Origin: an uncultured Bacilli bacterium
GTDB taxonomy: Bacteria > Bacillota_I > Bacilli_A > RF39 > UBA660
DNA: 64,000 bases
NCBI GenBank assembly: GCA_934148875.1
Contig: CAKPDJ010000001.1
Coordinates: 5,840 to 69,839, forward strand
Direction: 5' to 3'
Position numbers and translations under genes: made by a program. The notes beneath the pieces are model-generated. The model was not told the origin of the DNA. It did no database searches and was given only the letters and a program-made list of their open reading frames with translations. Numbering within the stretch: the stretch's first letter is position 1; each line of letters starts with the position of its first letter. Shown here piece after piece: positions 26,357-63,077 of this stretch.

Positions 26357-27247
26357 TTAATTATCTAGACCAATAATTTCTAAAATTCTATTTAAGTCAT
26401 TTGGATTAACAAAATGAAGTTCAATTCTATTATTTTTTATTTTTACTTTTGTACCAAACTTATCTGATAATTCCTCTTCTATAACTTTGTATTCATTGCG
26501 ATTAGTTTCATGTCTAATCTGAGTATTTTTCTTTTCATAAATATTGTCATGAGAAAGATTTTCTACTTCTCTAACACTTAAGCCATCAACTACTATTTTT
26601 TCTGCTAACTGTTTTACTTTTTCATTATCTTCTATTTTACTTAAAACACGTGCATGGCTCATTGATAATTTATTAGCCATAATCATATCTTTAACTTCTT
26701 CAGGTAATGATAATAAACCTAACATATTAGTAATGTGACTTCTACTTTTTCCTAATCGTTCTGCAAGTTTATCTTGTGTTAATGATAACTCATCTATTAG
26801 TTTCTTGTATGCAATAGCTTCTTCTAATGCATTAAGATTTTCTCTTTGTAGGTTTTCAAGTAAAGCTATTTCCATCATATCTTGGTCTGAAAAATCTCTC
26901 AAAATAGCTGGAATTGTTTCTTTTCCTGCTAAAATTGATGCTTTTACTCTACGTTCTCCTGCTATGATTTCATAACCTTTTATACTTTTTTTGGCAATAA
27001 TTGGCTGGAATACACCATGTTCTTTAATTGAATTAGCCAATTCCTGTAGAGCTGTTTCATCAAAATTTTTTCTTGGCTGGTAAGGATTACTTCTTAATTC
27101 AGATAGTGGTAATTCCACTATTTCTTCATTTGTAGATTCATCCATTATTTTTTCTTCAATTTTTTCATAGTCCATTGGTTCATTATTAAATAATTCCTCT
27201 AGGCCTCTACCTAAAGCTTTTCTTCTAGATGTCTCCATTTCGTGCAA
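26357..27247 (-). CDS. parB: Chromosome partitioning protein ParB/Spo0J
   Basis: ParB box (GRGLEELF) and an HTH (GKSRSHITNMLGLLSLP) that is Spo0J-like. It follows parA. Confidence 0.9.
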   Translation of the reverse strand: MHEMETSRRKALGRGLEELFNNEPMDYEKIEEKIMDESTNEEIVELPLSELRSNPYQPRKNFDETALQELANSIKEHGVFQPIIAKKSIKGYEIIAGERRVKASILAGKETIPAILRDFSDQDMMEIALLENLQRENLNALEEAIAYKKLIDELSLTQDKLAERLGKSRSHITNMLGLLSLPEEVKDMIMANKLSMSHARVLSKIEDNEKVKQLAEKIVVDGLSVREVENLSHDNIYEKKNTQIRHETNRNEYKVIEEELSDKFGTKVKIKNNRIELHFVNPNDLNRILEIIGLDN

Positions 27248-28013
27248 TCACTTCCTTTGCTAAATTTATATAAGCTTCTGTTGCCCTATGTTTTGGGTCA
27301 TAAGCTAATATCGGTTTCCCATGAGAAGGTGCTTCTGTTAATTTTACTAATCTTGGAATTATAGTGTTGTATACTCTTTCTTTAAAAAATCTTCTTATAT
27401 CTTCTACTACCTCTAATCCCAATAATGTTCTTGAATCAAGCATTGTTAGTAAGACACCTTCTATATCTAAATTAGGATTTAGATTTTTCTGTGCTAACAT
27501 TATTGTGTTTAATAATTGAGTAATTCCCTCTAATGCAAAAAATTCACATTGAACTGGTATTATAACTGAATCTGATGCTGTTAATGCATTTGTTGTAATT
27601 AATCCTAATGAAGGAGGACAGTCAATTATAATATAGTTGAATAAGTCTTTAATTGGATCTAAATAAGTTTTTAATTGAGCATTTTTGGCAAATCCTTGAT
27701 TAGTTTTACTTTTTTCAATTAATTCCATATCTAGTCCCGCTAAATTAATGGTTGCTGGTAAAACATATAAATTTTTATATTTTGTTTTAATAATTGCTTC
27801 CGTTATTTCACATTTACCTGTTAATACTTCGTGAACACTGTTTGTTATATCTCCCTTGTTAATTCCTACACCTGTTGTTGTATTACCCTGTGGATCTAAA
27901 TCTATTAATAATACTTTTTTTCCTAAATATGCAAGAGATGCAGAAAGGTTGATACTTGTTGTTGTTTTGCCTACGCCACCTTTTTGATTTACTAATGAAA
28001 TTGTTTTTCCCAT
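27225..28013 (-). CDS. parA: Chromosome partitioning ATPase ParA/Soj
   Basis: Deviant Walker A (KGGVGKTTTSINL). Confidence 0.95.
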   Translation of the reverse strand: MGKTISLVNQKGGVGKTTTSINLSASLAYLGKKVLLIDLDPQGNTTTGVGINKGDITNSVHEVLTGKCEITEAIIKTKYKNLYVLPATINLAGLDMELIEKSKTNQGFAKNAQLKTYLDPIKDLFNYIIIDCPPSLGLITTNALTASDSVIIPVQCEFFALEGITQLLNTIMLAQKNLNPNLDIEGVLLTMLDSRTLLGLEVVEDIRRFFKERVYNTIIPRLVKLTEAPSHGKPILAYDPKHRATEAYINLAKEVIARNGDI

Positions 28014-28080: not shown

Positions 28081-28106
28081 AAAAAAAAGTAGAAGTTCTA
28101 CTTTTT
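28081..28106 (-). terminator. Hairpin terminator downstream of parA/upstream region of noc
   Basis: gtagaa-gt-ttctac stem flanked by an A8 run and a T5 run. Confidence 0.5.
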
Positions 28107-29142
28107 AGTTATTTTTATCTATTTTTATAACTACTTGATAGTTGTTTTCAAAGTCTAAATCTTCAGTTGTTATTTTAATTCCTTTATTTTGAATTTTAGC
28201 TATAACACTCTTGATTTCATTAACAGCATCTTCTACAGTATATATTTTTGTTGTTTTTAATAATCTGTCAATATCATTATAATTATATTCTGGTTTTGGT
28301 TCTTTAATTTCTTTGTTTTCTGTTTCAGGCTCATCATCATCAAATTCAGATAATGCTTCTATTATTTCCTTTGTGTCATCTTTAGGAGCTAGTGATAGTG
28401 GAGGAACATCATCATCTTCGATTTCGTTTGATTTATTAGTTATATCAATTGTTGGTTGTTTTGGTTCACTTACTTCTATTTTTGGACCACTTTCTTCTAC
28501 AATTGTAACGCTATCATTAGTTATTGCTGATGGTTGAGATGTTTCACCTTTTAATTCTCTAATTTCATTATCTAGTTCTCTAACTGTCATACGATTATTG
28601 ATTATTTTTCTTAACATATTAATTTGTTCTTGTGGTGTATCTAAGTTTAATAGACTTCTGGCATGGCGTTCAGAAATTTGATCTTTTAGTAGAGCCTCTT
28701 GAATTTCATCAGGTAATGATAACAATCTCATTTTATTAGCTATTGCAGCTTGAGATTTTCCCATAGTACGACCTAGTTCTTCCTGAGTCATTGAATCTAA
28801 TTCAAGAATTTTTTGATATGTTCTTGCTTCTTCTATTGCTGTTAAATCTTTTCTTTGAAGATTTTCTAAAAGGGCTACTTTTGAAGCTTCCTTGTCGTCT
28901 AAATTACGAATTATTGCAGGAATTTTAGTTAAACCTGCCATTGCTGATGCTTTATATCTTCTTTCACCGGCTATTATTTCGTATTTATCTCCTATTTTTC
29001 TGACAATAATTGGCTGAATTACTCCATGTTCTTTGATTGATGCTGATAATTCTCTTAATGCATCTTCATTAAACACTTCACGTGGTTGAAAACGGTTAGG
29101 AATAATGTCATCTAAATATAGTTCTACTACTTCTCTATCCAT
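28105..29142 (-). CDS. noc: Nucleoid occlusion protein Noc (ParB paralogue), atypical
   Basis: PNRFQPR box and a Noc-type HTH (KSQAAIANKMRLLSLP, versus B. subtilis QSTIANKLRLLKLP). It sits at the noc–soj–spo0J position. It has a short N-terminus with no amphipathic helix and a ~70 aa acidic/Pro-rich insertion before the C-terminal domain. Confidence 0.8.
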   Translation of the reverse strand: MDREVVELYLDDIIPNRFQPREVFNEDALRELSASIKEHGVIQPIIVRKIGDKYEIIAGERRYKASAMAGLTKIPAIIRNLDDKEASKVALLENLQRKDLTAIEEARTYQKILELDSMTQEELGRTMGKSQAAIANKMRLLSLPDEIQEALLKDQISERHARSLLNLDTPQEQINMLRKIINNRMTVRELDNEIRELKGETSQPSAITNDSVTIVEESGPKIEVSEPKQPTIDITNKSNEIEDDDVPPLSLAPKDDTKEIIEALSEFDDDEPETENKEIKEPKPEYNYNDIDRLLKTTKIYTVEDAVNEIKSVIAKIQNKGIKITTEDLDFENNYQVVIKIDKNN

Positions 29143-32296: not shown

Positions 32297-32310
32297 ATTT
32301 CCCGGGAAAT
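32297..32310. promoter_or_regulatory. Noc-binding site (NBS), perfect consensus
   Basis: ATTTCCCGGGAAAT sits inside the 24-bp perfect palindrome 32292-32315 (AAATTATTTCCCGGGAAATAATTT), in the mnmE–small ORF intergenic region. Confidence 0.7.
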
Positions 32311-35938: not shown

Positions 35939-36115
35939 TTTTCCACACTTTCCACAATCTTGTTTATAACTTTATCAACCCTGTGATTATTTATTTTTTT
36001 ATTTTTGTGGAAAAGTGTGATATATTCAATATATATAAGGGTTATAATTGTGGAAAAAATTGTTGATAAGTTGTGAATAAAAAAAAAGATAAATTTTACT
36101 ATTTATTTTTCCACA
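35939..36115. promoter_or_regulatory. oriC upstream DnaA-box cluster (incA-like part of bipartite origin)
   Basis: At least five DnaA-box matches in both orientations: TTTTCCACA at 35939-47, 35948-56 and 36107-15, its reverse complement TGTGGAAAA at 36006-14 and 36049-57, and TGTTGATAA at 36061-69. Confidence 0.8.
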
Positions 36116-37586: not shown

Positions 37587-37588
37587 TG

Positions 37589-37686
37589 TGGATAAAATGT
37601 AAAAATAAAACTTTTTTTCCACAGGTAAAATTTTGAAAAAATATGATAAAATAAGGTTGAATGACAGTTATACACAGTTTCCACAG
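37589..37686. promoter_or_regulatory. oriC dnaA–dnaN intergenic DnaA boxes plus AT-rich unwinding region
   Basis: TGTGGATAA (perfect TTATCCACA on the reverse strand) at ~37589-97, TTTTCCACAG at ~37611-20 and GTTTCCACAG at ~37678-86, followed by an (AATAAT)n AT-rich tract. Confidence 0.75.
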
Positions 37687-38968: not shown

Positions 38969-39421
38969 ATGAAAGAATATGAAGTAAATGATGAAACAAT
39001 GGCTATATTAGGAGTTGATGATAATAACTCAAAGGTTTATGAAAATAATAAGGAATATAAAATAGCTAGTAGTAGTTATGAAGTAATGGATTATTCATGT
39101 CAGTATTTTGGTAGTTCTTATTCAGGTAGAGTAGATGGTAGTAAAAGAATATTAGGAGCAAACTATAAATTACCAATTATAGTAGAAGAAAGTTCAGAAA
39201 TGATTTTTTTTCCTATTACTTCACCTGAAAAAAGTGATTGTATATGGATAGCATTAAAATGGTATAAGAGTGTTGAACAAGTGGGTAATACAACATATAT
39301 AATTCTTAAAAATGGCAAGAAAATAAAGACAATTATGTCAAAAAAATCAATAGAAAATCAAGTTATGAGAGCTTCTAGACTTAATTTAATTTTAAATGAG
39401 AGAAAATTAACTAAAATATAG
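38969..39421 (+). CDS. ComK-family competence transcription factor homologue
   Basis: The conserved ComK blocks are present: YEVN…TMAIL, SCQYFGSSYSGR, LPIIVEE, MIFFPITSP, DCIWIAL and ENQV. GGGGG RBS. Confidence 0.7.
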   Translation: MKEYEVNDETMAILGVDDNNSKVYENNKEYKIASSSYEVMDYSCQYFGSSYSGRVDGSKRILGANYKLPIIVEESSEMIFFPITSPEKSDCIWIALKWYKSVEQVGNTTYIILKNGKKIKTIMSKKSIENQVMRASRLNLILNERKLTKI

Positions 39422-42614: not shown

Positions 42615-45254
42615 ATGGATAATAAAGATGATTTAAATGAATTATTAGCTAGAGCTAGTGAAGAAGATAATAATGCTGATAATGTTGTGGATGATAGTTC
42701 TGATATTAATGATAATAGTTCTCAAGAAGATATTGATATAATTAAATCTAATGGTAATTTTAGTGGATATTTTCATGAAAGAGATAGATTGGATCATAAT
42801 AACATTGTAGATGAAGTTAAAACTTCTTTTATGGAGTATTCAATGAGTGTTATTAAGTCTCGTGCATTACCTGACCTTAGAGATGGTTTAAAGCCTGTTC
42901 ACAGACGTATTTTATGGTCTATGTATGAATCTGGTTATACACCTGATAAACCTCACAGAAAGAGTGCTAAAACAGTCGGAGAAGTTATGGGTAATTATCA
43001 TCCACATGGAGATAGTTCTATTTATGAAGCAATGGTGCGTTTAGCACAAGATTTTAACCAAAGATATATGTTAATTGATGGCCATGGCAATTTTGGTAAT
43101 ATTGAGGGAGATGGCGCAGCAGCAATGCGTTATACTGAGTCAAGACTTGCTAAGATTTCATTGGAATTATTAAGGGATATAAATAAAGATACTGTTGATA
43201 TGGATGACAACTTTGATGCTACAAGAAAAGAACCTAAGGTATTACCTTCTAGATTTCCTAATGTACTTGTTAATGGATCTATGGGTATTGCAGTTGGTAT
43301 GGCTACTAATATTCCACCACATAATTTAGGTGAAGTTATAGATGGTTGTGTTGCATATATTGACAATCCAGATATTGATACTATGGGATTGATGCAGTAT
43401 ATTAAAGGACCAGATTTTCCTACAGGTGGTATTATTTTAGGTAATTCTGGTATTAAAAAGGCTTATGAAACGGGTAGAGGTTCTATTACTATTCGTAGTA
43501 AGGCTACTATTGAAGAAAATGGTAATCATAATCAGATAGTTATTACTGAGGTTCCTTATGGTGTTAATACTATGGAACTTAAAAATAAAGTTGCCGAACT
43601 TGTTCATAATAAAACTATTGAAGGTATTTCTGATTATCATACTGATTTAAAAGACGGTATTAAAATTACTATTACTTTAAAGAAGGATGCTAATGCACAA
43701 GTTATTTTGAATCAGTTATATAAACATACTAATTTTCAAATATCTTATGGTATTATTTTCTTGGTTCTTGATGGACAAACACCTAGAACTTTAGGTATAA
43801 AGGATATTATTTCTAAATATATAGACCATCAAAAAGAAGTAATTATAAGAAGAACTCGTTACGATTTAGGAAAAGCAGAAGAAAGAGTTCATATTTTAGA
43901 GGGATTACGTATAGCGCTTGATAATATTGATGAGGTTGTACATATTATTAGAGCTGCTGAAAGTGATGATGAGGCAAGAAATAATTTGATGTCCAGATTT
44001 GCTTTGGATGATATTCAAGCTAATAGTATTCTAGAAATGAGATTACGTCGTTTAACTGGATTAGAACGTGGAAAAGTTGAAGCTGAGTTAAATGATTTAC
44101 TTGTTAAGATAGCTGATTATAAGGACATTTTAGCTAATGGACAAAGAGTTCTAGATATTATTAAGGAAGAAATGTTGGAAATTAAACGTAAGTATAGTGA
44201 TGATCGTAGGACTCAAATTGATATGACAGCAATTGAATATATTGAAGATGAATCATTAATACCTGTGAATAACATATTAATTACATTAACTAATAAAGGT
44301 TATATTAAGAGAATGCCAGTTGATGCTTATCGTACACAAAATCGTGGTGGAGTTGGAATTAAAGGTATGTCTACTAATGAAGAAGATTTTGTGGAAAAGA
44401 TGATTAATATGGAAACTCATGATTATATCTTCTTCTTTAGTAATAAAGGTAAGGTATATAGGATCAAAGGTTATGAGGTTCCAGAATTTAGCAGACAAAG
44501 TAAAGGACTGCCAATAGTTAATTTATTACCTGTGGAAAAAGGTGAAAGTATTAATTCTATTGTTTCATTGAGTGCTAAAGAACATGAATATAATTACTTT
44601 GTATTTGTTACTAAAAACGGTATTGTTAAACGTACTGATTTAAGTGAATTTGATAATATACGTAGTAGTGGAAAAATAGCAATTACATTAAGAGATGATG
44701 ATGAACTTATTGCTGTACGTAAAACTACTGGGGAAAACGAAGTTATTATTGGTGCTTCTAATGGTAGAATGGTAAGATTTGTGGAAAACGAAATTCGTGT
44801 AATGGGTCGTACTGCTGCTGGTGTTAAGGGAATTGAATTAGGTGATAGTAAAGTTATCGGTGGTGAAATTATTACATCTGATGAACAGGTATTGATAGTT
44901 ACTGAAAAAGGTTATGGTAAAAAAACTCCAATTGATGAATATCGTTTAACTCATCGTGGAAGTAAGGGTGTTAAAGCACTTAACGTAACTGAGAAGAATG
45001 GAATGTTAGTATCATTGAAAGCAGTAACCGGAGAAGAAGACTTAGTTATTATTACAGATAGTGGAATAGTAATGAGAATGTCTATGGATCAAATATCTAC
45101 TTTAGGTAGAGCTACTCAAGGTGTACGTTTAATTAAACTAAAAGATGATCAAAAGGTGGCTACTGTATCAACTATAATAAAAGATGAAACGGATAATGGT
45201 TCAGAAGTTGATAACAGTGAGGTTGTTGAAAATAATGAAAGTGTATCTGAATAG
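42615..45254 (+). CDS. gyrA: DNA gyrase subunit A
   Basis: Active-site region (AAAMRYTE), GyrA-box β-pinwheel repeats and an acidic C-terminal tail. Confidence 0.97.
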   Translation: MDNKDDLNELLARASEEDNNADNVVDDSSDINDNSSQEDIDIIKSNGNFSGYFHERDRLDHNNIVDEVKTSFMEYSMSVIKSRALPDLRDGLKPVHRRILWSMYESGYTPDKPHRKSAKTVGEVMGNYHPHGDSSIYEAMVRLAQDFNQRYMLIDGHGNFGNIEGDGAAAMRYTESRLAKISLELLRDINKDTVDMDDNFDATRKEPKVLPSRFPNVLVNGSMGIAVGMATNIPPHNLGEVIDGCVAYIDNPDIDTMGLMQYIKGPDFPTGGIILGNSGIKKAYETGRGSITIRSKATIEENGNHNQIVITEVPYGVNTMELKNKVAELVHNKTIEGISDYHTDLKDGIKITITLKKDANAQVILNQLYKHTNFQISYGIIFLVLDGQTPRTLGIKDIISKYIDHQKEVIIRRTRYDLGKAEERVHILEGLRIALDNIDEVVHIIRAAESDDEARNNLMSRFALDDIQANSILEMRLRRLTGLERGKVEAELNDLLVKIADYKDILANGQRVLDIIKEEMLEIKRKYSDDRRTQIDMTAIEYIEDESLIPVNNILITLTNKGYIKRMPVDAYRTQNRGGVGIKGMSTNEEDFVEKMINMETHDYIFFFSNKGKVYRIKGYEVPEFSRQSKGLPIVNLLPVEKGESINSIVSLSAKEHEYNYFVFVTKNGIVKRTDLSEFDNIRSSGKIAITLRDDDELIAVRKTTGENEVIIGASNGRMVRFVENEIRVMGRTAAGVKGIELGDSKVIGGEIITSDEQVLIVTEKGYGKKTPIDEYRLTHRGSKGVKALNVTEKNGMLVSLKAVTGEEDLVIITDSGIVMRMSMDQISTLGRATQGVRLIKLKDDQKVATVSTIIKDETDNGSEVDNSEVVENNESVSE

Positions 45255-45265
45255 ATACACTTTTT
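45241..45265 (+). terminator. Hairpin overlapping the gyrA stop codon
   Basis: gtgtatct-gaat-agatacac is a perfect 8-bp stem followed by TTTTT. Confidence 0.55.
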
Positions 45266-45299
45266 AGTTTCACGTGAAACTACTAATTATTTATATTTG

Positions 45300-45339
45300 T
45301 ATAGTTTTCAATTTACTATGTTGAAAACTATATTTTTTT
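45300..45339 (+). terminator. Second terminator-like hairpin after gyrA
   Basis: tatagttttcaa-tttactatg-ttgaaaactata is a perfect 12-bp inverted repeat followed by T7. Confidence 0.55.
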
Positions 45340-45347
45340 ATTAAATT

Positions 45348-45361
45348 ATTTCCCGGGAAAT
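45348..45361. promoter_or_regulatory. Noc-binding site (NBS), perfect consensus
   Basis: ATTTCCCGGGAAAT within the 24-bp palindrome 45343-45366. It lies 12 bp upstream of the first full parS site. Confidence 0.7.
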
Positions 45362-46768
45362 AATTTTCCACAATGTTTCACGTGAAACATTAAACAAGTA
45401 TTTGATTATAGTTATTAAAATTGAAAAATTTTAAATATTAAATTGTATACTGTTAATAAGTAAAATTTTATCAAAATTAAATAGTATTAAGTTTATTGTT
45501 AATAATTATTTAGTTACAATATGTTTAAAAATAATATTTATTATTGTTAGGTTTAGTAATCAATAATTTAATAGATTATTATTTTATGTTTATATTTGTA
45601 TTAGGCGATTGTTTTTTAGTTTCCACAGTGTTTCACGTGAAACATAGATTTCTAATAATATTTTTGTTCTTAAATATTTATTATAGGAGACATTATAAAA
45701 TTTATTATTTACTAAATTTAAATGCATTTGTTATTTTTATTAAAAATTACATTCTATCTAATTTAAATTTTCATAATTTCCACAATGTTTCACGTGAAAC
45801 ATTGATAATTTAATAGTTATTTTTTATTAATCAATCTACAGTTATTATATAATTTTAATTACTATAAGTAATGTTAATATAGTAAACATTATATTGTTGA
45901 TTAGTTTCAATTTTCAATGATGAGTATCATTAAATAAGGTATGTCTATAATAACATAATGAGTTATTATAGATTAACCAATATAGAATATATAATACTTG
46001 AATTTTCCACATGTTTCACGTGAAACATTGTACGAATATTAAAATATAATTTATTATTTATAATAACAATTATTACTAAAGATAAAAGGTTTATTTAATA
46101 TAATTATAGATCAAGCTTTATTGATTAATAAATATTATTGTTTATTATACTTAATAAATTTATTATTAATTGTGTTAATTTGTTTTTTATATTGAATTTA
46201 TATAAATTATAAAATATCCACAATGTTTCACGTGAAACATAGCTTATTTTGTTACATATAATATTAGATTTTTAAAATATTAGTAGTTATTTATTGTATC
46301 AAATATAATTTATAAATTAAATCTAATAAATATAGATGCTTTTTAAATTTATTAAGATGATATGTATTTTATTTATGAAATTTTAGTGTTAATTAATATA
46401 ATTTCCACATGTTTCACGTGAAACATAGATAATTTAACAGTTGTTTTTTAATTAATCTACAATTATTATATAATTTTAATTACTATAAGTAATGTTAATA
46501 TAATAAACATTATATATTGTTGATTAATTTTAAATTTTAATGATAAGTATCATTAAATAAGGTATGTCTATAATAACATAATGAGTTATTATAGATTAAC
46601 CAATATTGAATATATAATACTTGAATTTTCCACATGTTTCACGTGAAACATATGAATATATCTATTAAATAAGATAAATATCTTTAAAAATTAAAAAAAT
46701 AATGTAATGTTTCACGTGAAACATAAAAATAGTTGCTCTTTTTATAAAAATATAATATTATAATTATC

Positions 46769-46847
46769 GTGCAATAAGTATTAATGGAACCAGGTCAGGA
46801 TTGGAAGATAGCAGCCTTAACGTTCTATACTTATGTGCACTTTTTTT
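46769..46847 (+). ncRNA. ffs: Small (4.5S-type) signal recognition particle RNA
   Basis: Conserved domain IV sequence GGAACCAGGTCAGGATTGGAAGATAGCAGCC. The 5' (GTGCAATAAGTA) and 3' (TACTTATGTGCAC) ends pair, and a T7 terminator follows. TATAAT boxes lie at 46751-56 and 46759-64. Confidence 0.7.
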
Positions 46848-46858
46848 ATAGGTGAATT

Positions 46859-47308
46859 ATGAAGGATTATGAAATATTATATATGAAAGAAGCAATAAAA
46901 GAGGCAATGAAAGCTTATAATTCAGGTGAGATACCTGTTGGAGCAGTAATTGTTAAAAACGGTAATATAATTGCTAGAGCACACAATATGAAAGAAACTA
47001 AAATGTGTGCTATTAAGCATGCGGAAATTATTGCCATTGAAAGAGCATGTGCAAAACTTAATAATTGGAGATTAATTGGATGTACTATGTATGTCACAAT
47101 GTTACCTTGTCCTATGTGTGCTAGTGCTATTAATCAATCAAGAATTTGTAATATATATTATGGCACTGTACCTGATTATGCAGAAAAAGAGGCTGTGGAA
47201 AAAATATTGAATGATAAAAATTATGGGTTACCTGTTAAACTTAGTGGTTCAATTTTGGAACAAGATTGTGGAAAACTTTTAAAGCAATTTTTTGTTGAAA
47301 AACGATAA
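46859..47308 (+). CDS. tadA: tRNA-specific adenosine deaminase TadA
   Basis: CDA-fold zinc motifs HAEIIAIE and PCPMCASAI. Confidence 0.9.
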   Translation: MKDYEILYMKEAIKEAMKAYNSGEIPVGAVIVKNGNIIARAHNMKETKMCAIKHAEIIAIERACAKLNNWRLIGCTMYVTMLPCPMCASAINQSRICNIYYGTVPDYAEKEAVEKILNDKNYGLPVKLSGSILEQDCGKLLKQFFVEKR

Positions 47309-47365
47309 TTATAGTTAGAATAAATTAGTTTTAATGGTATAATATAAGTGTTTTGGAGGTGCATT

Positions 47366-49069
47366 ATGTCTTATCAAGCTTTATATAGAAAATATAGACC
47401 ATCTACTTTAGAAGATGTAATTGGCCAAGATGTTGTTATTAAAATTTTAAAAAATGCAATTATTAATAATAAAATTTGCCATGCTTATATGTTTTCAGGA
47501 CCACGTGGGATTGGAAAAACCTCTATTGCGAAAATTTTAGCTAAAACTGTTAACTGTTTAAATTTGGATAATGGTGATGCTTGTGGAAAATGTGAAAATT
47601 GTTTATCTATAAGTAATAATTCTAATCCTGATATTATAGAAATAGATGCGGCTTCTAATAATGGAGTAGATGAGATTCGCGAAATTAAAAGTAAAATTAA
47701 TTTAGTGCCTAATCAATTAAAATATAAAGTGTACATTATTGATGAGGTACATATGTTGTCTATTGGTGCATTTAATGCACTATTAAAAACTTTGGAAGAA
47801 CCACCAGAGCATGTAATTTTTATATTAGCTACAACAGATTTACATAAGGTTCCTGTAACTATCATTTCTAGATGTCAATGTCTTGAATTTCATCGTATTA
47901 GTTGTGATGATATAACAAAAAGACTTAAGTATATATCTGATAAAGAAAATATTAATATTGATGATAGTGTTTTAAAAAGAATAGCTGAATTATCAGATGG
48001 TGGTATGCGTGATGCGGTTGGTATGTTAGATAAGTTAAATGCTTATTCTAATTCAAATATCACAATGGATGATTTTGAAAAAGTAAATGGTATTGTGTCA
48101 TTATCTGAAAGAATAGAATTTTTGGATAATATTATGAATGGTAACATAGATCATGTCATTGAATTTATAGATTACATTTATGATAATGGTAAAGATTTTA
48201 TAGTATTTGTCCAAGATATGATTAATTTATGTAAAGATTTATGTATTTCGTATTATATTGAAAATGAAAAAAAATATGATATTGATTTACTATTATCTTT
48301 TTTAAAATCTTTAAATAATACTTTAAAAAATACAGAATTTTCTTCAAATATTAGAATAACATTAGAAGTTGAGTTGTTATCGTTTATTAATAATCAAATT
48401 CTTAACGATAATAATACAATTATTGATAATAATTCTCAAAAGAAAGAAAAAAATGCTGTTAATGATTTGAAAATTGATAATAATGGAATACAAAACGAAG
48501 TTATTGATAATAGTTATCAACAAATTAATAAAAAAGAGGAAAAAATTATTTCCCGGGAAATAATTAATCCACAATCTGTTGATGATTCAAGTGCTTATCA
48601 GGAAGTAGTTGATATTATTATTAACAATTGTTTTGCTAGAGCCAATAAGAAAAATAAGTTGGACTTTGAAAATAATTGGAATAAGCTTAATGATTATGCT
48701 CTTGATAATGAGTATGGTGCTGTTGCATGTTACATTTCTGATGGCATAGTGAGAGCTGTTGGTGAAAATGAGGTTATTATTTCATTTGCTTATGAATCTA
48801 TGGTTGACAGAGGAGTTAAGATAATTAATAAGATAGAAAATTTATTAGAAAAAATTTATAGTAAACATTATGATGTAGCGTTAATAACGAATGATAAATG
48901 GAACCATGAAAAAGAAATATTTATTTTGAATATGAATAATAAGGTAAAATATGAATATAAAGAATTACCTAATAATAATATAGAAAATAAACCTTCATTA
49001 AAAAGCGATAATTCAATTGCTGAAGAAGCGATTGAATTGTTTGGTGAAGATATGATATCAATAAATTAG
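47366..49069 (+). CDS. dnaX: DNA polymerase III subunit tau/gamma (DnaX)
   Basis: AAA+ clamp-loader N-terminus (YRPSTLEDVIGQD…GPRGIGKTS), a zinc module (CGKCENC) and an SRC motif (TIISRCQ). The ATG at 47366 with a GGAGGTG RBS is preferred over the track's GTG at 47348. The variable linker contains an in-frame NBS palindrome. Confidence 0.9.
   Translation: MSYQALYRKYRPSTLEDVIGQDVVIKILKNAIINNKICHAYMFSGPRGIGKTSIAKILAKTVNCLNLDNGDACGKCENCLSISNNSNPDIIEIDAASNNGVDEIREIKSKINLVPNQLKYKVYIIDEVHMLSIGAFNALLKTLEEPPEHVIFILATTDLHKVPVTIISRCQCLEFHRISCDDITKRLKYISDKENINIDDSVLKRIAELSDGGMRDAVGMLDKLNAYSNSNITMDDFEKVNGIVSLSERIEFLDNIMNGNIDHVIEFIDYIYDNGKDFIVFVQDMINLCKDLCISYYIENEKKYDIDLLLSFLKSLNNTLKNTEFSSNIRITLEVELLSFINNQILNDNNTIIDNNSQKKEKNAVNDLKIDNNGIQNEVIDNSYQQINKKEEKIISREIINPQSVDDSSAYQEVVDIIINNCFARANKKNKLDFENNWNKLNDYALDNEYGAVACYISDGIVRAVGENEVIISFAYESMVDRGVKIINKIENLLEKIYSKHYDVALITNDKWNHEKEIFILNMNNKVKYEYKELPNNNIENKPSLKSDNSIAEEAIELFGEDMISIN
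48548..48561. promoter_or_regulatory. Noc-binding site (NBS) embedded in the dnaX coding sequence
   Basis: ATTTCCCGGGAAAT within the 22-bp palindrome 48544-48565. It translates as …KIISREII… in the poorly conserved DnaX linker and is followed by TTAATCCACAAT. Confidence 0.65.
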
Positions 49070-50214: not shown

Positions 50215-51093
50215 GTGATTTATGTGTTGGAAGTTTATAAGGACAAGCAGCCATTATTTTATGATGAAGTAAAAAATAGTATTACGAATAATAAAATAAG
50301 TCATGCTTATATGTTAGAAACAAATAATTATATTTTAAAAGATGATTTGATTTTATCTTTTATAAAAACATTATTTTGTCAAAATCATAATTTAGAACAG
50401 TCAAATTGTTTAGATTGTAATATCTGTCATTTGATAGACAATAATAGTTTATCAGATTTTAAGATTATTGAACCAGATGGAGCTTGGATAAAAAAAGATC
50501 AAATTCTTGGAATAAAAGAAGCATTTAAAACAACTTCATTTGAAAATAGACCAAGAATTTATTGGATTAAAGGAGCAGATAAACTAAATAAACAAGCAGC
50601 TAATTCATTACTTAAATTTTTAGAGGAGCCTGAGGGAAATATTATAGCTATATTAGAAGTTGATAATAGATATAAGGTTTTAGAAACTATTAGAAGCAGA
50701 TGTCAAATATATTCTTTTGTTAATCATGAAAAAAGTAAAGAAATAGAAAATATTGAATTATTGACAGAAATAATTAAAACTTTGGAAAATAAAAAAGAAA
50801 AGGCGATAGCTTATTTGCCTATCACATTAGATAATAATTATTATAATAAAGATTTTTGGAAAAGTCTTTTTCTTGACATGATTAATATTTATGAAAGTGC
50901 CATAAGAAAACAAAATAATTTGAATTTTTCTAATTATGGTGATATTTTGGAGTTAATAATTAGTAAAAATTCGATATCAGGTTTAATTAATAAAGTTAGT
51001 GTTTTATTTGAAATGGTTAATAATTTAAACTATAATTTAAACATGACGATGATGATTGATCAATTTGTTATTAAGTTTAATGGAGGTGAGTAG
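50215..51093 (+). CDS. holB: DNA polymerase III δ' subunit (HolB)
   Basis: Clamp-loader-like AAA+ module with a degenerate P-loop (SHAYMLE), a zinc module (CLDCNIC) and an SRC-like motif (TIRSRCQ). Confidence 0.8.
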   Translation: MIYVLEVYKDKQPLFYDEVKNSITNNKISHAYMLETNNYILKDDLILSFIKTLFCQNHNLEQSNCLDCNICHLIDNNSLSDFKIIEPDGAWIKKDQILGIKEAFKTTSFENRPRIYWIKGADKLNKQAANSLLKFLEEPEGNIIAILEVDNRYKVLETIRSRCQIYSFVNHEKSKEIENIELLTEIIKTLENKKEKAIAYLPITLDNNYYNKDFWKSLFLDMINIYESAIRKQNNLNFSNYGDILELIISKNSISGLINKVSVLFEMVNNLNYNLNMTMMIDQFVIKFNGGE

Positions 51094-51094
51094 A

Positions 51095-51877
51095 GTGCAT
51101 AAAATAGTGGGAGTTATTTTTAATGAAAAAGGAAAAAGTTATTTCTTTTCGTGCAATAGCTTGGAATTAAATAAGGGTGATTATGTTATTGTTGAAACTG
51201 AAAAAGGTTTACAGTATGGACAAGTTGTTGTTCAACCTTATGAAATAAATGAAGAAGATATTGGTTTCCCATTAAAAAATGTAATTCGTATTGCTACTAA
51301 AGAAGATAATAAACAATATGATAAGAATAAAAAAGATGCTTCCCAGGCATTGATTAAGTCTAGAGAATTAGTTGAAGAATTTAATTTGAATATGAGAATT
51401 ATTGATGTCAATTATACCTTTGATAGAAAACAACTTTTATTTAATTTCTTAGCTGATTCAAGAATAGATTTTAGAGAATTAGCCAAAAAGCTTGCTCAAA
51501 TTTATAAAACTCGTATTGAACTTAGACAAATTGGGGTTAGAGATAAGGCTAAAGAAATAGGTGGAATTGGTCCTTGTGGGCGTTTCTTATGTTGTAGTAC
51601 TTTTTTAACGGATTTTAATAGTGTTTCTATTAATATGGCAAAAAATCAAATGTTAGCATTAAATCCTACAAAAATAAATGGTTTATGTGGTAGACTCTTA
51701 TGTTGTTTAAATTATGAAGATGAAGTTTATACTGAAATGAAAAAAGGTATGCCTAATATTGGTCAAACTTTTAAAGACAGTGAAGTAGAAGGCAAAGTTA
51801 TATCTTTAAATTTATTAAAAAGAACTGCTACTATCGAAACTAAGAACAAATCACTAGTTGAGGTTGAAATAAAATAA
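51095..51877 (+). CDS. yaaT: PSP1-domain protein YaaT/RicT
   Basis: Strong match to B. subtilis YaaT (IGPCGRFLCCSTFL…NPTKINGLCGRLLCCLNYE). The proposed start is the GTG at 51095, 4 nt after a GGAGGTG RBS; the track start at 51056 overlaps holB. Confidence 0.8.
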   Translation: MHKIVGVIFNEKGKSYFFSCNSLELNKGDYVIVETEKGLQYGQVVVQPYEINEEDIGFPLKNVIRIATKEDNKQYDKNKKDASQALIKSRELVEEFNLNMRIIDVNYTFDRKQLLFNFLADSRIDFRELAKKLAQIYKTRIELRQIGVRDKAKEIGGIGPCGRFLCCSTFLTDFNSVSINMAKNQMLALNPTKINGLCGRLLCCLNYEDEVYTEMKKGMPNIGQTFKDSEVEGKVISLNLLKRTATIETKNKSLVEVEIK

Positions 51878-52593
51878 TGGAAGTATTACATGATTTAGTC
51901 GGATATAAAAATTTAAAAATATATCAAAATACAGATTGGTTTTTATTTTCTTTAGATTCAGTGCTACTTGCTAATTTTGTAACTCTTAATAAAAATATCA
52001 AGACTATATTTGACTTAGGTTGTGGAAATGCACCTATACCTTTAATTCTTTCAACTAAAACAGATGCACATATTGTTGGGGTTGAAATTCAAAAAGATTG
52101 CTATAAGCTGGCAAAGAAAAGCGTCATATATAATAAGCTTGATAGTCAAATTGAATTAATGAATATTGATATGAAAAACCTAAAAAATATGTATACTAGT
52201 GATAGTGTAGATGTTATTACTTGTAATCCTCCATATTTTAAATATTCTTCTACTAGTAATATTAATGAAGATGAGCATAAAGTAATAGCTAGACATGAGA
52301 AAATGATTACTTTGGATGATATATTGTCACTTGCTAGATATTTGTTAAAAAATAATGGTTGTATTGCTATGGTTCACCGTACTGATAGATTGATAGAAAT
52401 AATTAATGCTTTTCAAAAACATGGATTAGAAGTAAAAAAAATACGATTTGTATATCCTAGAATTAATTCCGAATCAAATATGGTTTTAATTGAGGGTAGA
52501 AAAAATGGTAAGGTTGGGTTAAAATTATTACCTCCACTTTATGTTCATGATAATAATAATTATACTGATGAAGTTATGACTATGTTTCAATAG
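51877..52593 (+). CDS. YabB/TrmN6-like tRNA (adenine-N6)-methyltransferase
   Basis: SAM-binding motif (IFDLGCGNAPIP) and an NPPY catalytic motif (CNPPYF). It is at the yabB position. Confidence 0.7.
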   Translation: MEVLHDLVGYKNLKIYQNTDWFLFSLDSVLLANFVTLNKNIKTIFDLGCGNAPIPLILSTKTDAHIVGVEIQKDCYKLAKKSVIYNKLDSQIELMNIDMKNLKNMYTSDSVDVITCNPPYFKYSSTSNINEDEHKVIARHEKMITLDDILSLARYLLKNNGCIAMVHRTDRLIEIINAFQKHGLEVKKIRFVYPRINSESNMVLIEGRKNGKVGLKLLPPLYVHDNNNYTDEVMTMFQ

Positions 52594-53453: not shown

Positions 53454-53467
53454 ATTTCCCGGGAAAT
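53454..53467. promoter_or_regulatory. Noc-binding site (NBS), perfect consensus
   Basis: ATTTCCCGGGAAAT within the 26-bp palindrome 53448-53473. It starts at the rsmI stop codon, upstream of pth. Confidence 0.7.
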
Positions 53468-60814: not shown

Positions 60815-61035
60815 CATAAATGTTTTGAAGGAAAGAGTTATTGGAAATCTATTTAAGAGAGTCTAGTTAGGTGAAAGTAGATATAGAAGAACAATAATAA
60901 ATGGTTCCGGAGCTAATAAATTATGTTTATGATTTATTCGTTACTCGCGTTAAGAGTTTAAGTGTATAGTGTTATGCTATAAATTAAGGTGGTACCGCGA
61001 TTATTCGTCCTTATGGAAGAATAGTCGTTTTTTTT
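60815..61035 (+). promoter_or_regulatory. T-box riboswitch leader (putatively Met-specific) with intrinsic terminator
   Basis: Promoter: -35 TTGAAT at 60780-85 and an extended -10 TGtTATAAT at 60800-08. Conserved T-box sequence AAATTAAGGTGGTACCGCG at 60981-99 overlaps the 5' arm of the terminator (CGATTATTC…GAATAGTCG + T8). A candidate AUG specifier lies at 60901-03. The downstream operon is dut–metG. Confidence 0.7.
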
Positions 61036-61045
61036 GGAGGTAATT

Positions 61046-61525
61046 ATGGCAAGATATTTTGAAAAAATTAGTTTTGAACAGTTTAAAAAGGACATAAGTG
61101 ATGATAAAGAATTATATGAATCATATAATATTCCTAAGAGAAGTACTAAATATAGTGCAGGTTATGATTTTGAATCTTTATTTGATTTTGTTTTAAAACC
61201 AGGTGAAATAAAAAAAATTCCTACTGGTATTAAGGTATGTATGAATAATGATGAGGTTATGTTCCTTTTAGTTAGAAGTAGTCAGGGATTTAAGTATAAT
61301 GTTCGAATGTGTAATCAGGTTGGGGTATTTGAATCTGATTATTATAATAATCTGGATAATGAGGGTCATGCATGGTTAAAGTTACAAAACCATGGTTCTA
61401 AAGATTATGTGGTAAAAAAAGGAGATAAGATTTGCCAGGGTGTTTTTACAAAATTTTTAACAGTAGATAATGAAGAAAATATAGATAATGTTAGAACTAG
61501 TGGTATTGGTTCTACGGGTAGATAG
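61046..61525 (+). CDS. dut: dUTP diphosphatase (dUTPase)
   Basis: dUTPase motifs (RSTKYSAGYDF; RTSGIGSTGR). The ATG at 61046 has a GGAGG RBS; the track start at 61034 is TTG, upstream of the RBS. Confidence 0.8.
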   Translation: MARYFEKISFEQFKKDISDDKELYESYNIPKRSTKYSAGYDFESLFDFVLKPGEIKKIPTGIKVCMNNDEVMFLLVRSSQGFKYNVRMCNQVGVFESDYYNNLDNEGHAWLKLQNHGSKDYVVKKGDKICQGVFTKFLTVDNEENIDNVRTSGIGSTGR

Positions 61526-61535
61526 GAGAGATATT

Positions 61536-63077
61536 ATGGAAAAATATTATATTTCAACAGCTATTGCTTATACATCAGGTAAACCTCATATTGGGAATAC
61601 TTATGAGATTGTGTTAGCAGATAGTATTGCACGCTATAAAAGATTAAAGGGATTTGATGTTTATTTCCAAACAGGAACTGATGAGCATGGGGAAAAGATT
61701 CAAATAAAAGCAGAAGAAAAAGGAATTACTCCCAAAGAATTTGTTGATAGTGTTGCTTCTGAGATTAAAAATATTTGGGATATTATGAATACTAGTTATG
61801 ATAAATTTGTAAGAACTACTGATAAGCATCATGAAGAAATCGTTCAAAAAATATTTAAAAAAATGTATGATAAAGGTGATATTTATTTAGGTAAATATGA
61901 GGGACTTTATTGTACACCTTGTGAATCATTCTTTACAGAAAGTCAGTTAGTTGATGGAAAATGTCCTGATTGTGGTCGTGATGTTGAACCAAAGAGCGAA
62001 GAAGCTTACTTTTTTAGACTTTCTAAATATCAGGATAAATTAATAGAATATATTGAATCTCATCCAGATTTTATTAAACCAGAGTCTAGAAAAAATGAAA
62101 TGATTAATAATTTTATTAAACCAGGTCTTCAAGATTTATGCGTTTCTCGTACTTCTTTTAATTGGGGAATTCCAGTTGATTTTGACCCTAAACATGTTGT
62201 TTATGTATGGCTTGATGCTTTAACTAATTATATTACTAATATTGGTTATGACCCAGATGGAAGTAGTGAAATGTTTAATAAATATTGGCCTGCTGATTTG
62301 CATTTAATAGGAAAAGATATTATTCGTTTTCATACTATTTATTGGCCTTGTTTCTTAATGAGTCTTGATTTACCACTTCCAAAACAGGTTTTTGGTCACC
62401 CATGGTTATTAGTAGGTGATGGTAAAATGAGTAAGTCTAAGGGTAATGTAATTTATGCTGATGATTTAGTAAATGAATTTGGAGTAGATGCTGTTCGTTA
62501 TTATTTACTTCATGAAATTCCTTATCAACAAGATGGTAGTTTAACTTACGATTTACTAATTGAGAGAATTAATAGTGATCTAGCTAATGTTTTGGGTAAT
62601 TTGGTTAATCGTACTATTTCAATGGTTAATAAGTATTTTGATGGAAAAGTTAGTAATAAAAATGTTTTAGATACTTATGATAGTGAGTTAATCTCTATGA
62701 TTCAAAATCTTGATAGTAGAATTGAAAAGAAAATGGATAATTTAGAAATAGGTGCATCACTTGATGAAATATTTGATGTTTTAAGAAGAAGCAACAAATA
62801 TATTGATGAGGCTGAACCTTGGGTTTTAGCAAAGGATGAAAGCAAAAAGGATAGATTAGAGACGGTTTTATATAACTTATTAGAAGCTATTCGTGTATGT
62901 GGCATTTTCTTAAGTCCATATTTACCTGATACAAGTGAAAAAATAAAGACTCAGATTAATAATTCTAGAAATGAATTAACTTACTTAAATGATAATTATT
63001 ACGAAGTTAGTAATCCTGAAGCTTTATTTATGAGAATTGATAAAGATAAAAAATTAGAAGAATTGGGAAAAAAGTAA
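61536..63077 (+). CDS. metG: Methionine–tRNA ligase (short form)
   Basis: HIGH motif (SGKPHIGN), KMSKS motif, and a zinc knuckle (CTPCES…CPDCG). The ATG at 61536 has an AGGAGAG RBS. Confidence 0.95.
   Translation: MEKYYISTAIAYTSGKPHIGNTYEIVLADSIARYKRLKGFDVYFQTGTDEHGEKIQIKAEEKGITPKEFVDSVASEIKNIWDIMNTSYDKFVRTTDKHHEEIVQKIFKKMYDKGDIYLGKYEGLYCTPCESFFTESQLVDGKCPDCGRDVEPKSEEAYFFRLSKYQDKLIEYIESHPDFIKPESRKNEMINNFIKPGLQDLCVSRTSFNWGIPVDFDPKHVVYVWLDALTNYITNIGYDPDGSSEMFNKYWPADLHLIGKDIIRFHTIYWPCFLMSLDLPLPKQVFGHPWLLVGDGKMSKSKGNVIYADDLVNEFGVDAVRYYLLHEIPYQQDGSLTYDLLIERINSDLANVLGNLVNRTISMVNKYFDGKVSNKNVLDTYDSELISMIQNLDSRIEKKMDNLEIGASLDEIFDVLRRSNKYIDEAEPWVLAKDESKKDRLETVLYNLLEAIRVCGIFLSPYLPDTSEKIKTQINNSRNELTYLNDNYYEVSNPEALFMRIDKDKKLEELGKK

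Follow-up and report, generated by a model that had tools for sequence, protein, structure and literature searches.

Fused Noc-binding sites, DnaA boxes and parS sites downstream of gyrA in uncultured Bacilli: a candidate centromere hub

Introduction

Why would a bacterium pack many copies of its chromosomal centromere site into one short intergenic spacer, and what else does that spacer hold? The question is raised by a stretch of 64,000 nucleotides (nt) from an uncultured Bacilli bacterium (contig CAKPDJ010000001.1, positions 5,840 to 69,839 of the forward strand; genome of about 26% GC), here called the window in its whole length, in which nine parS sites for the partition protein ParB lie between gyrA and the gene for the small signal recognition particle (SRP) RNA. 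An earlier reading of the letters alone, the original prediction, took these sites for a dense centromere array. That account is, on the motif evidence presented below, incomplete: the sites are not bare parS, and the conserved unit of the clade is a tripartite module that joins a Noc-binding site (NBS), a DnaA box and parS. The spacer is probably the main centromere of the chromosome, elaborated into a hub for ParB, Noc and DnaA, all of whose binding is predicted from the sites themselves.

ParB and Noc nucleate on 16-bp sites, bind cytidine triphosphate (CTP), close as clamps and slide along the DNA, and ParB complexes activate ParA and load SMC (PMC7333895, PMC7053999, PMC8429893). Origin-proximal clusters of parS are known, with 1 to 20-23 sites depending on the species, and reviews still ask why these sites cluster (PMC7333895).

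Motifs were surveyed in the window and in 80 related loci (L003-L082), which came from a GyrA-based scan, represent one genome per species at 70-97% GyrA identity, and were each taken as +/-10 kb around gyrA (22-kb loci). This set comprises 51 kb of array regions and 1449 kb elsewhere. The relatives are uncultured gut metagenome-assembled genomes (MAGs) labelled Bacilli, Tenericutes or Candidatus (Allo)scybalousia and classified as Bacilli incertae sedis. parS and NBS were counted as 16-mers with up to 2 mismatches, and a strict DnaA box was defined as TTWTNCACA. The chance level for parS in the window was taken from shuffles, and the expectation for DnaA boxes in arrays from a first-order Markov model. 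An additional set of 19 metagenome contigs was picked by the exact module pattern and, because of this selection, was used for the question of location only.

The parS array of the window

The motif scan of the 64-kb window located TGTTTCACGTGAAACA as a perfect copy eight times (starts at 45374, 45629, 45786, 46012, 46224, 46410, 46635 and 46708) and the symmetric variant AGTTTCACGTGAAACT once (at 45266), and all nine sites fall inside 45266-46723, just as the original prediction had it (eight perfect 16-mers and one variant within about 1.46 kb). Nine sites stand against 0.01 expected, none of 100 shuffles reached nine, and outside the array the 64-kb window holds no further match to TGTTTCACGTGAAACA at up to 2 mismatches. 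Their identification as canonical parS is supported as well: the 16-bp consensus TGTTNCACGTGAAACA is matched exactly (eight perfect sites and the one symmetric variant), a ParB with parS-type residues and a ParA are encoded, and the locus is origin-proximal and conserved.

Several details of the first description had to be revised. The supposed gene-free region of 1.6 kb is a non-coding stretch of 1510 nt, from the gyrA stop codon (45254) to 46764, and the small SRP RNA gene at 46765-46846 had been missed. Spacers given as 74-263 bp measure 57-239 nt as gaps between sites, the start-to-start spacings being 108, 255, 157, 226, 212, 186, 225 and 73 nt. The ATG...CAT extension ascribed to every site is found at seven of the eight perfect ones, and the site at 45629 has GTG.

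TRF detected no regular tandem repeat in the array, which does contain two nested internal duplications: the segments 45622-46028 and 46217-46651 are alike at 81%, and the segments 45786-46028 and 46410-46651 at 93-96%. An 89-aa open reading frame (ORF) at 45544-45813 is probably spurious, because the spacer DNA it occupies is unalignable between close relatives. A metagenome contig in ENA (L001) is 100% identical across 45000-47000, although its assembly is perhaps not independent of the source of the window.

DnaA boxes abutting parS

Just before seven of the nine sites, at a gap of 0-1 nt, stands a 9-mer of the DnaA-box family, in each case on the side facing oriC and on the plus strand: TTTTCCACA three times, ATTTCCACA twice, and GTTTCCACA and ATATCCACA once each. 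At site 2 (45374-45389, a perfect copy) the box TTTTCCACA occupies 45364-45372, 1 nt after an NBS and 1 nt before parS. A single nucleotide also lies between box and parS at site 3 (45629-45644), where the DnaA-box-like GTTTCCACA and a G give a composite feature of 45619-45644, at site 4 (45786-45801; DnaA-box-like ATTTCCACA, 45776-45801), and at site 6 (46224-46239; 46214-46239), whose box ATATCCACA has 1 mismatch to TTATCCACA. Box and parS abut at 0 nt at site 5 (46012-46027; TTTTCCACA, 46003-46027), site 7 (46410-46425; DnaA-box-like ATTTCCACA, 46401-46425) and site 8 (46635-46650; TTTTCCACA, 46626-46650). The two sites without an adjacent box are site 1 (45266-45281), the variant AGTTTCACGTGAAACT, which recurs as the same variant at the same position in L003, and site 9 (46708-46723), a perfect copy 41 nt 5' of the SRP RNA gene. 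Three of the boxes are strict and four near-consensus; within 1.3 kb they are all co-oriented, about 200 bp apart and not tightly clustered. TTTTCCACA is the commonest box in the regions flanking dnaA, too.

The association extends beyond the window. Arrays of the survey set contain 74 strict boxes where 11 are expected. Among 78 strict boxes no more than 60 nt from a parS site, 35 (in the window and 10 related loci) lie at a gap of 0-1 with their CACA end toward parS, and in 5 other species 10 strict boxes lie at a gap of 0-2 in the opposite orientation, with the TT end toward parS, which amounts to at least two geometries. Because both orientations keep the same tight spacing, these counts argue that the box itself is selected and not an extended ParB site.

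To the left and right of the array, the genes gyrA, tadA and dnaX contain further, minus-strand copies of TTTTCCACA (44390, 44531, 44780, 47194, 47267 and 47582); these copies may reflect codon usage, as they read TGTGGAAAA on the coding strand.

The tripartite module

An alignment on parS of 58 sites, drawn from the window and the eight relatives nearest to it, has an information profile with CACA at -5 to -2 and CCCGGG at -23 to -17. The corresponding unit is TATTTCCCGGGAAATA, 1-3 nt, TT(A/T)TNCACA, 0-1 nt and parS, about 43 bp in all. The window has one full module and six DnaA box-parS pairs; the full module opens with a perfect 16-bp NBS, TATTTCCCGGGAAATA, at 45347-45362, identical to the NBS of Jalal et al. 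2020 (PMC7383237). The survey counted 21 strict modules: one in the window, two in L003, three in L004, four in L005, two each in L006 and L007, one each in L009 and L046, and five in L065. Beside its one strict module, L046 has several further modules with decayed boxes.

The module at 45343-45390, which includes parS site 2, is identical at 48 of 48 positions to modules of L005, and module identity between species is 98-100%. The adjacent 3' flank of gyrA is only 76-84% identical between the same species, and the spacers between modules are unalignable. Because the modules remain identical next to such diverged DNA, the pattern looks like a signature of selection acting on the module itself and not on the spacers.

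NBS number 109 in the 51 kb of arrays and 79 in the 1449 kb elsewhere (2.13 versus 0.054 per kb, a 39-fold concentration), and 56 of those in arrays have a parS less than 20 nt away; those outside arrays are scattered single sites. In the 19 metagenome contigs the exact module is present up to five times each, with gyrA and/or tadA/dnaX adjoining wherever the flank is long enough. Elsewhere in the window, single perfect 14-mer cores of the NBS lie at 32297-32310, 48548-48561 (inside dnaX) and 53454-53467. Related loci carry NBS at corresponding distances 3' of gyrA (L003 at 15184 and 20093; L005 at 15930 and 20847), which suggests that NBS positions outside the array are conserved, one of them within the dnaX coding sequence.

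ParB, ParA and a Noc-like paralogue

Cognate proteins are encoded across oriC from the array, where rsmG, a noc-like gene, parA and parB occupy the left arm at 26.4-29.1 kb. The original prediction had placed the three partition genes about 17 kb away; the distance between parAB and the array is 16-19 kb. Four residues (173, 179, 184 and 201 in Caulobacter numbering) set the preference for parS or NBS (Jalal et al. 2020, PMC7383237): in ParB, position 173 is R and position 201 holds a small residue, and Noc has Q173, K179, K184 and R201. The ParB/Spo0J of the window (26357-27247, minus strand; 296 aa), downstream of parA, carries R-M-S-S at these positions and is of the parS type; its recognition region reads GKSRSHITNMLGLLSLP...SMSHAR. 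It also has an N-terminal ParA-activating motif RRKALGRGLEELF (LGRGL), GERRxxA and ENLQR, and its true start is probably the ATG at 27238. The adjoining gene (27225-28013, minus strand) encodes a ParA/Soj-type ATPase.

The Noc-like ParB paralogue (28105-29142, minus strand; 345 aa), whose gene adjoins rsmG, has Q-K-S-R at the same positions, the NBS type, with the recognition region GKSQAAIANKMRLLSLP...SERHAR. It thereby matches three of the four Noc residues (Q173, K179 and R201), including the main determinants Q173 and R201, and its best matches among solved structures are Noc (7NG0 and 7NFU, 1e-59). A long acidic linker spans residues about 200-290.

The start of this protein lies only 14 residues before its PNRFQPR motif, with in-frame stops directly upstream, and in the alignment with the Geobacillus Noc chain 7NFU its residue 4 falls on residue 27. 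The N-terminal amphipathic membrane-targeting helix of Bacillus and Geobacillus Noc was not found in the protein or in its 120 closest homologues, all of which lack the N-terminal extension (116 have the same offset, and 4 start 20-21 residues before PNRFQPR) and carry QKSR or QKTR. The position of the start and the upstream stops are the reason for regarding the paralogue as a Noc without a membrane helix, and it may belong to a functionally distinct Noc subfamily. Since the helix is lacking, membrane tethering is not assumed here; nucleoid occlusion of the classical, membrane-tethering kind appears doubtful for this protein, and the subfamily probably has some other function.

Conservation across related Bacilli

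Whether relatives carry the array between gyrA and tadA was a question that came with the original prediction: 58 of the 80 related species have 2-11 parS sites between gyrA and dnaX, and 6 more loci have a single one. All 263 parS sites of the window and the 80 loci lie in gyrA-dnaX spacers, with none in 1.45 Mb of flanks. In several lineages tadA comes first and the array stands between tadA and dnaX. Copy number changes fast, with nine sites in the window versus five in a relative whose GyrA is 97% identical. In the 16 loci without parS, no variant or substitute palindrome was found. Nine of them (L018, L024, L025, L026, L027, L028, L034, L053 and L054; GyrA 71-82% identical) have full flanks, so that this sub-clade, which keeps the gyrA-tadA-dnaX synteny, is truly without the array. 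A tblastn search for parB, parA and noc gave no hit in the +/-10 kb around gyrA of any locus.

Composition varies among lineages: some interleave NBS and parS without boxes, and others have bare parS arrays. Near-regular arrays immediately 3' of gyrA or tadA are found in L060, L075, L077 and L078, at start-to-start spacings of about 70, 73, 106 and 117 nt, respectively. In L060, L075 and L078 an NBS sits at a near-constant offset from most parS sites (L078 has one NBS and one parS per unit of about 117 nt), and L077 has NBS only at the distal end. By their layout, these four arrays appear closer to plasmid-type centromeres than the irregular array of the window.

A centromere hub and its alternatives

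The anatomy of the spacer, the cognate proteins with matching specificity residues, the conservation of the locus and the positional precision of its sites are together consistent with a main centromere that has been elaborated into a ParB/Noc/DnaA hub. Every parS would serve as an entry point for ParB-CTP clamps, which would then slide out over the AT-rich DNA between sites. With nine entry points in 1.5 kb, ParB should become very dense at one locus 9 kb from oriC, and it is for this reason that the array is taken as the main centromere. The dense partition complex formed there would activate ParA and probably load SMC. The hub would also set DnaA, ParB and the Noc paralogue without a membrane helix side by side, repeatedly and in fixed register. 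The box centres lie about one helical turn away from the first half-site of parS, so that domain IV of DnaA could either touch ParB as it nucleates or compete with it. The array boxes would hold or titrate DnaA close to ParA/Soj, which is a known regulator of DnaA in Bacillus, and the NBS one nucleotide further on would add the Noc paralogue. The most likely outcome would be that control of replication initiation is coupled to the partition complex; in addition, sliding ParB clamps may be stopped by DnaA and Noc bound at their sites and so be kept within the array. We infer both the binding of these proteins, cooperative or mutually exclusive, and its physiological effect.

Precedents for such coupling exist. 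In B. subtilis the DnaA-box clusters near the origin repress initiation, and losing them together with Spo0J has a synthetically severe effect, via Soj (PMC3245932); Noc of S. aureus holds back DnaA-dependent initiation by a route that is unknown but may be direct (PMC5540599); and DnaA of Caulobacter binds boxes within parS (PMC6399470). These three links, between ParB/Soj and DnaA, Noc and DnaA, and DnaA and parS, are known genetically, with their mechanism unresolved, and they make a coupling role plausible. In the array, three binding sites lie within one to two helical turns, and this arrangement has been kept across species while the surroundings changed, which suggests that the array physically wires segregation and replication control together. 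The module also offers a compact, synthesisable substrate of 43-48 bp on which contact, exclusion or blocking among DnaA, ParB and Noc could be studied. A bolder version of this reading is that small-genome gut Bacilli use a three-protein centromere module of about 43 bp, repeated along the array, in which a Noc paralogue without its former membrane helix has been repurposed from nucleoid occlusion to centromere and initiation control and DnaA occupancy is gated directly by the two CTP clamps. We hold this version only tentatively and think it rather unlikely as it stands; if true, it would be a hard-wired replication-segregation checkpoint without a described equivalent.

A number of observations weigh against the hub. 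The organisms are uncultured, the binding is read from sequence only, and all the DNA comes from MAGs or metagenome contigs, in which short-read assembly may have miscounted repeats. The array of the window stems partly from recent duplication, and for that reason its sites are not independent observations. Only three of the seven window boxes fit TTWTNCACA, the other four deviating at position 1 (A or G), and all but one of the seven window modules have lost the NBS. Strict DnaA boxes are missing from about half of the related arrays, and NBS from roughly a third, so that the parS array is the general feature and the additions are lineage-specific. One box per about 200 bp is unlike known DnaA-titrating clusters, and the distance of 0-1 nt between box and parS may signal that the two proteins exclude each other, not that they bind together.

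A plainer alternative is a multi-site centromere in which only parS matters and the TCCACA/TTATCCACA and NBS flanks are extended ParB/Noc context or duplicated passengers. Many relatives, among them L043, L047, L069, L074 and L082, have parS arrays that hold neither boxes nor NBS, and these fit it, as do the recent duplications within the window and the imperfection of four of its seven boxes. It nevertheless remains an improbable, if serious, competitor: it does not account for modules that are 98-100% conserved between species with unalignable spacers, nor for boxes set flush against parS in opposite orientations in different lineages, a geometry that an extended ParB site leaves unexplained. 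The array boxes match the 9-mers that flank dnaA, and the NBS are perfect 16-mers enriched 39-fold. Emphasis could also be placed on DnaA, with the array as a titrating or inactivating locus of the E. coli datA or B. subtilis DnaA-box-cluster type and parS and NBS regulating access to the boxes. Seven box-like sites in 1.3 kb near oriC and the lack of yabA at its usual place downstream of yaaT agree with this, and the B. subtilis clusters both repress initiation and are synthetically sick with a spo0J deletion (PMC3245932). Yet parS is the clade-wide component, boxes occur in only about 20 of the 58 arrays, and they are isolated, about one per 200 bp, and unclustered; we rate the chance of this explanation as low.

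Lower still is the chance that ParB (and Noc) at the array serves chiefly as an insulator or transcription regulator for the essential genes on either side, gyrBA upstream and SRP RNA-tadA-dnaX downstream. In favour of it, the first parS directly follows the likely gyrA terminator, the last lies 41 nt before the SRP RNA gene, and a TTGC motif 8-10 nt after the last parS recurs in several species, but nine sites go far beyond regulatory need, promoter-like sites show no excess (24 versus 26 expected), and in several lineages the array stands between tadA and dnaX and so has different neighbours. The number of sites and the presence of the array on either side of tadA are hard to reconcile with a purely regulatory role. 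Least probable of all, to the point of being far-fetched, is a second or auxiliary origin, or the relic of an integrated plasmid partition/replication region. AT-rich non-coding DNA with DnaA boxes and iterated partition sites does resemble a plasmid ori/par region, but GC skew and gene strand switch at rpmH/dnaA, at about 36 kb; the boxes occur singly, far apart and in one orientation; synteny of the locus holds throughout the clade; and no rep or par genes adjoin it. Likewise, blastn of the array against PLSDB (72,556 plasmids) and INPHARED (50,697 phages) gave no match, and an Rfam E-value scan for RNA genes hidden in the spacers returned the SRP RNA only. The array was also considered as oriC itself and rejected, because the skew switch and dense boxes lie at dnaA, at 35.9-37.7 kb. 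With no plasmid or phage similarity, no RNA family but the SRP RNA and the skew switch elsewhere, it is unlikely that the array is the relic of a mobile element, hides an RNA gene or acts as a second origin. Of the plasmid-style centromere suggested in the original prediction, only the architecture survives: there is no plasmid or phage similarity, parAB lie 16-19 kb off, and no regular tandem repeat is present.

Relation to known systems

parS, NBS and the DnaA box are each canonical, and the novelty lies in their arrangement. The array shares with the ParB(Spo0J)-parS system of B. subtilis its origin-proximal 16-bp site TGTTNCACGTGAAACA, the R173-type helix, the GERR CTP motif, the ParA/Soj partner and the position of noc-parA-parB next to rsmG. 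Whereas the parS sites of B. subtilis are dispersed, the window packs all its detectable parS into one 1.5-kb intergenic spacer, with none inside parB. Iterated plasmid centromeres, of which sopC of the F plasmid is an example, likewise have many copies of one ParB-type site in non-coding DNA, and some relatives of the window are near-regular in the same way; the array of the window differs in being chromosomal, in consisting of canonical chromosomal parS at irregular spacing and in lying 16-19 kb from parAB.

The parS region of Caulobacter crescentus, whose DnaA boxes were reportedly described by Mera and colleagues in 2014 (reviewed in PMC6399470), resembles the array in that initiator sites are embedded in a centromere and initiation is linked to the start of segregation. 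It belongs to another phylum, and in the window the box abuts parS at 0-1 nt, seven times over, with boxes of relatives also paired with NBS. The DnaA-box clusters of B. subtilis (PMC3245932) and E. coli datA similarly lie near but outside oriC, those of Bacillus being linked genetically to Spo0J/Soj; in contrast, the window has one box per module, about every 200 bp, each fused to a ParB site. With the Noc-NBS system (PMC7383237, PMC8429893, PMC4331003) the array shares the 16-bp NBS and a paralogue with Q173, K179 and R201 whose best matches are Noc structures. Here, however, NBS are concentrated 39-fold in arrays and interleaved with parS instead of being only scattered, and the paralogue has no membrane helix.

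In the full-text literature searched, which leaves many papers in subscription journals outside its coverage, no description was found of a Bacillota intergenic array holding all detectable parS, of a repeated and conserved parS-DnaA box-NBS fusion in fixed register, or of a link between such an array and a Noc subfamily without a membrane helix.

Genomic surroundings

The array lies to the right of oriC, at a distance of 9-10.5 kb. The sign of the GC skew changes near 36 kb, where rpmH meets dnaA and strict boxes, mostly TTTTCCACA, cluster: the left part of oriC is a DnaA-box cluster 5' of dnaA at the skew switch (35939-36115), and the right part consists of boxes between dnaA and dnaN (37587-37676). 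The gene order dnaA-dnaN-comK-like-recF-gyrB-gyrA-[array]-SRP RNA-tadA-dnaX-ybaB-recR-holB-yaaT is Bacillus-like. The left border of the array is the 3' end of gyrA (42615-45254, plus strand; 879 aa), assigned by the Pfam domains DNA_topoisoIV and DNA_gyraseA_C and by synteny in the 80 loci. A hairpin over its stop codon, GTATCTGAATAGATAC followed by TTTTT (45238-45263, plus strand), was picked up as a palindrome in the terminator-like scan, where it is listed on the minus strand; together with the T-run it is likely the gyrA terminator. The right border is the small SRP RNA gene (46765-46846, plus strand; Rfam RF00169, scoring 51.4 bits where the gathering cutoff is 40), followed by tadA (46859-47308, plus strand; NCBIfam) and, 3' of it, dnaX (47348-49069; by synteny).

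Between the last parS and the SRP RNA gene, a TTGC(T/A) motif occurs 8-10 nt 3' of the last parS in the window (within 46724-46764) and in L003, L049, L015, L056 and L071-L073. Its copy TTGCTC (46733-46738) was considered as the -35 element of an SRP RNA promoter and ruled out, since the spacing to TATAAT does not fit.

At 51056-52593 a methyltransferase gene directly follows the yaaT/PSP1-like gene on its 3' side, and yabA is not at its usual place downstream of yaaT. The product of yabA regulates DnaA/DnaN in Bacillus, and its absence from this place may bear on the control of DnaA in the lineage. Between dnaN and recF, a position held by rlbA/yaaA in many Bacillota, the window has a ComK-family gene (38969-39421, plus strand; Pfam, 3.6e-40), and this placement is conserved across the clade. 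Further to the right, a T-box leader (60816-61015, plus strand; Rfam, 96 bits) lies 5' of the ORFs 61034-61525 and 61488-63077, the second of which has methionyl-tRNA synthetase Pfam domains.

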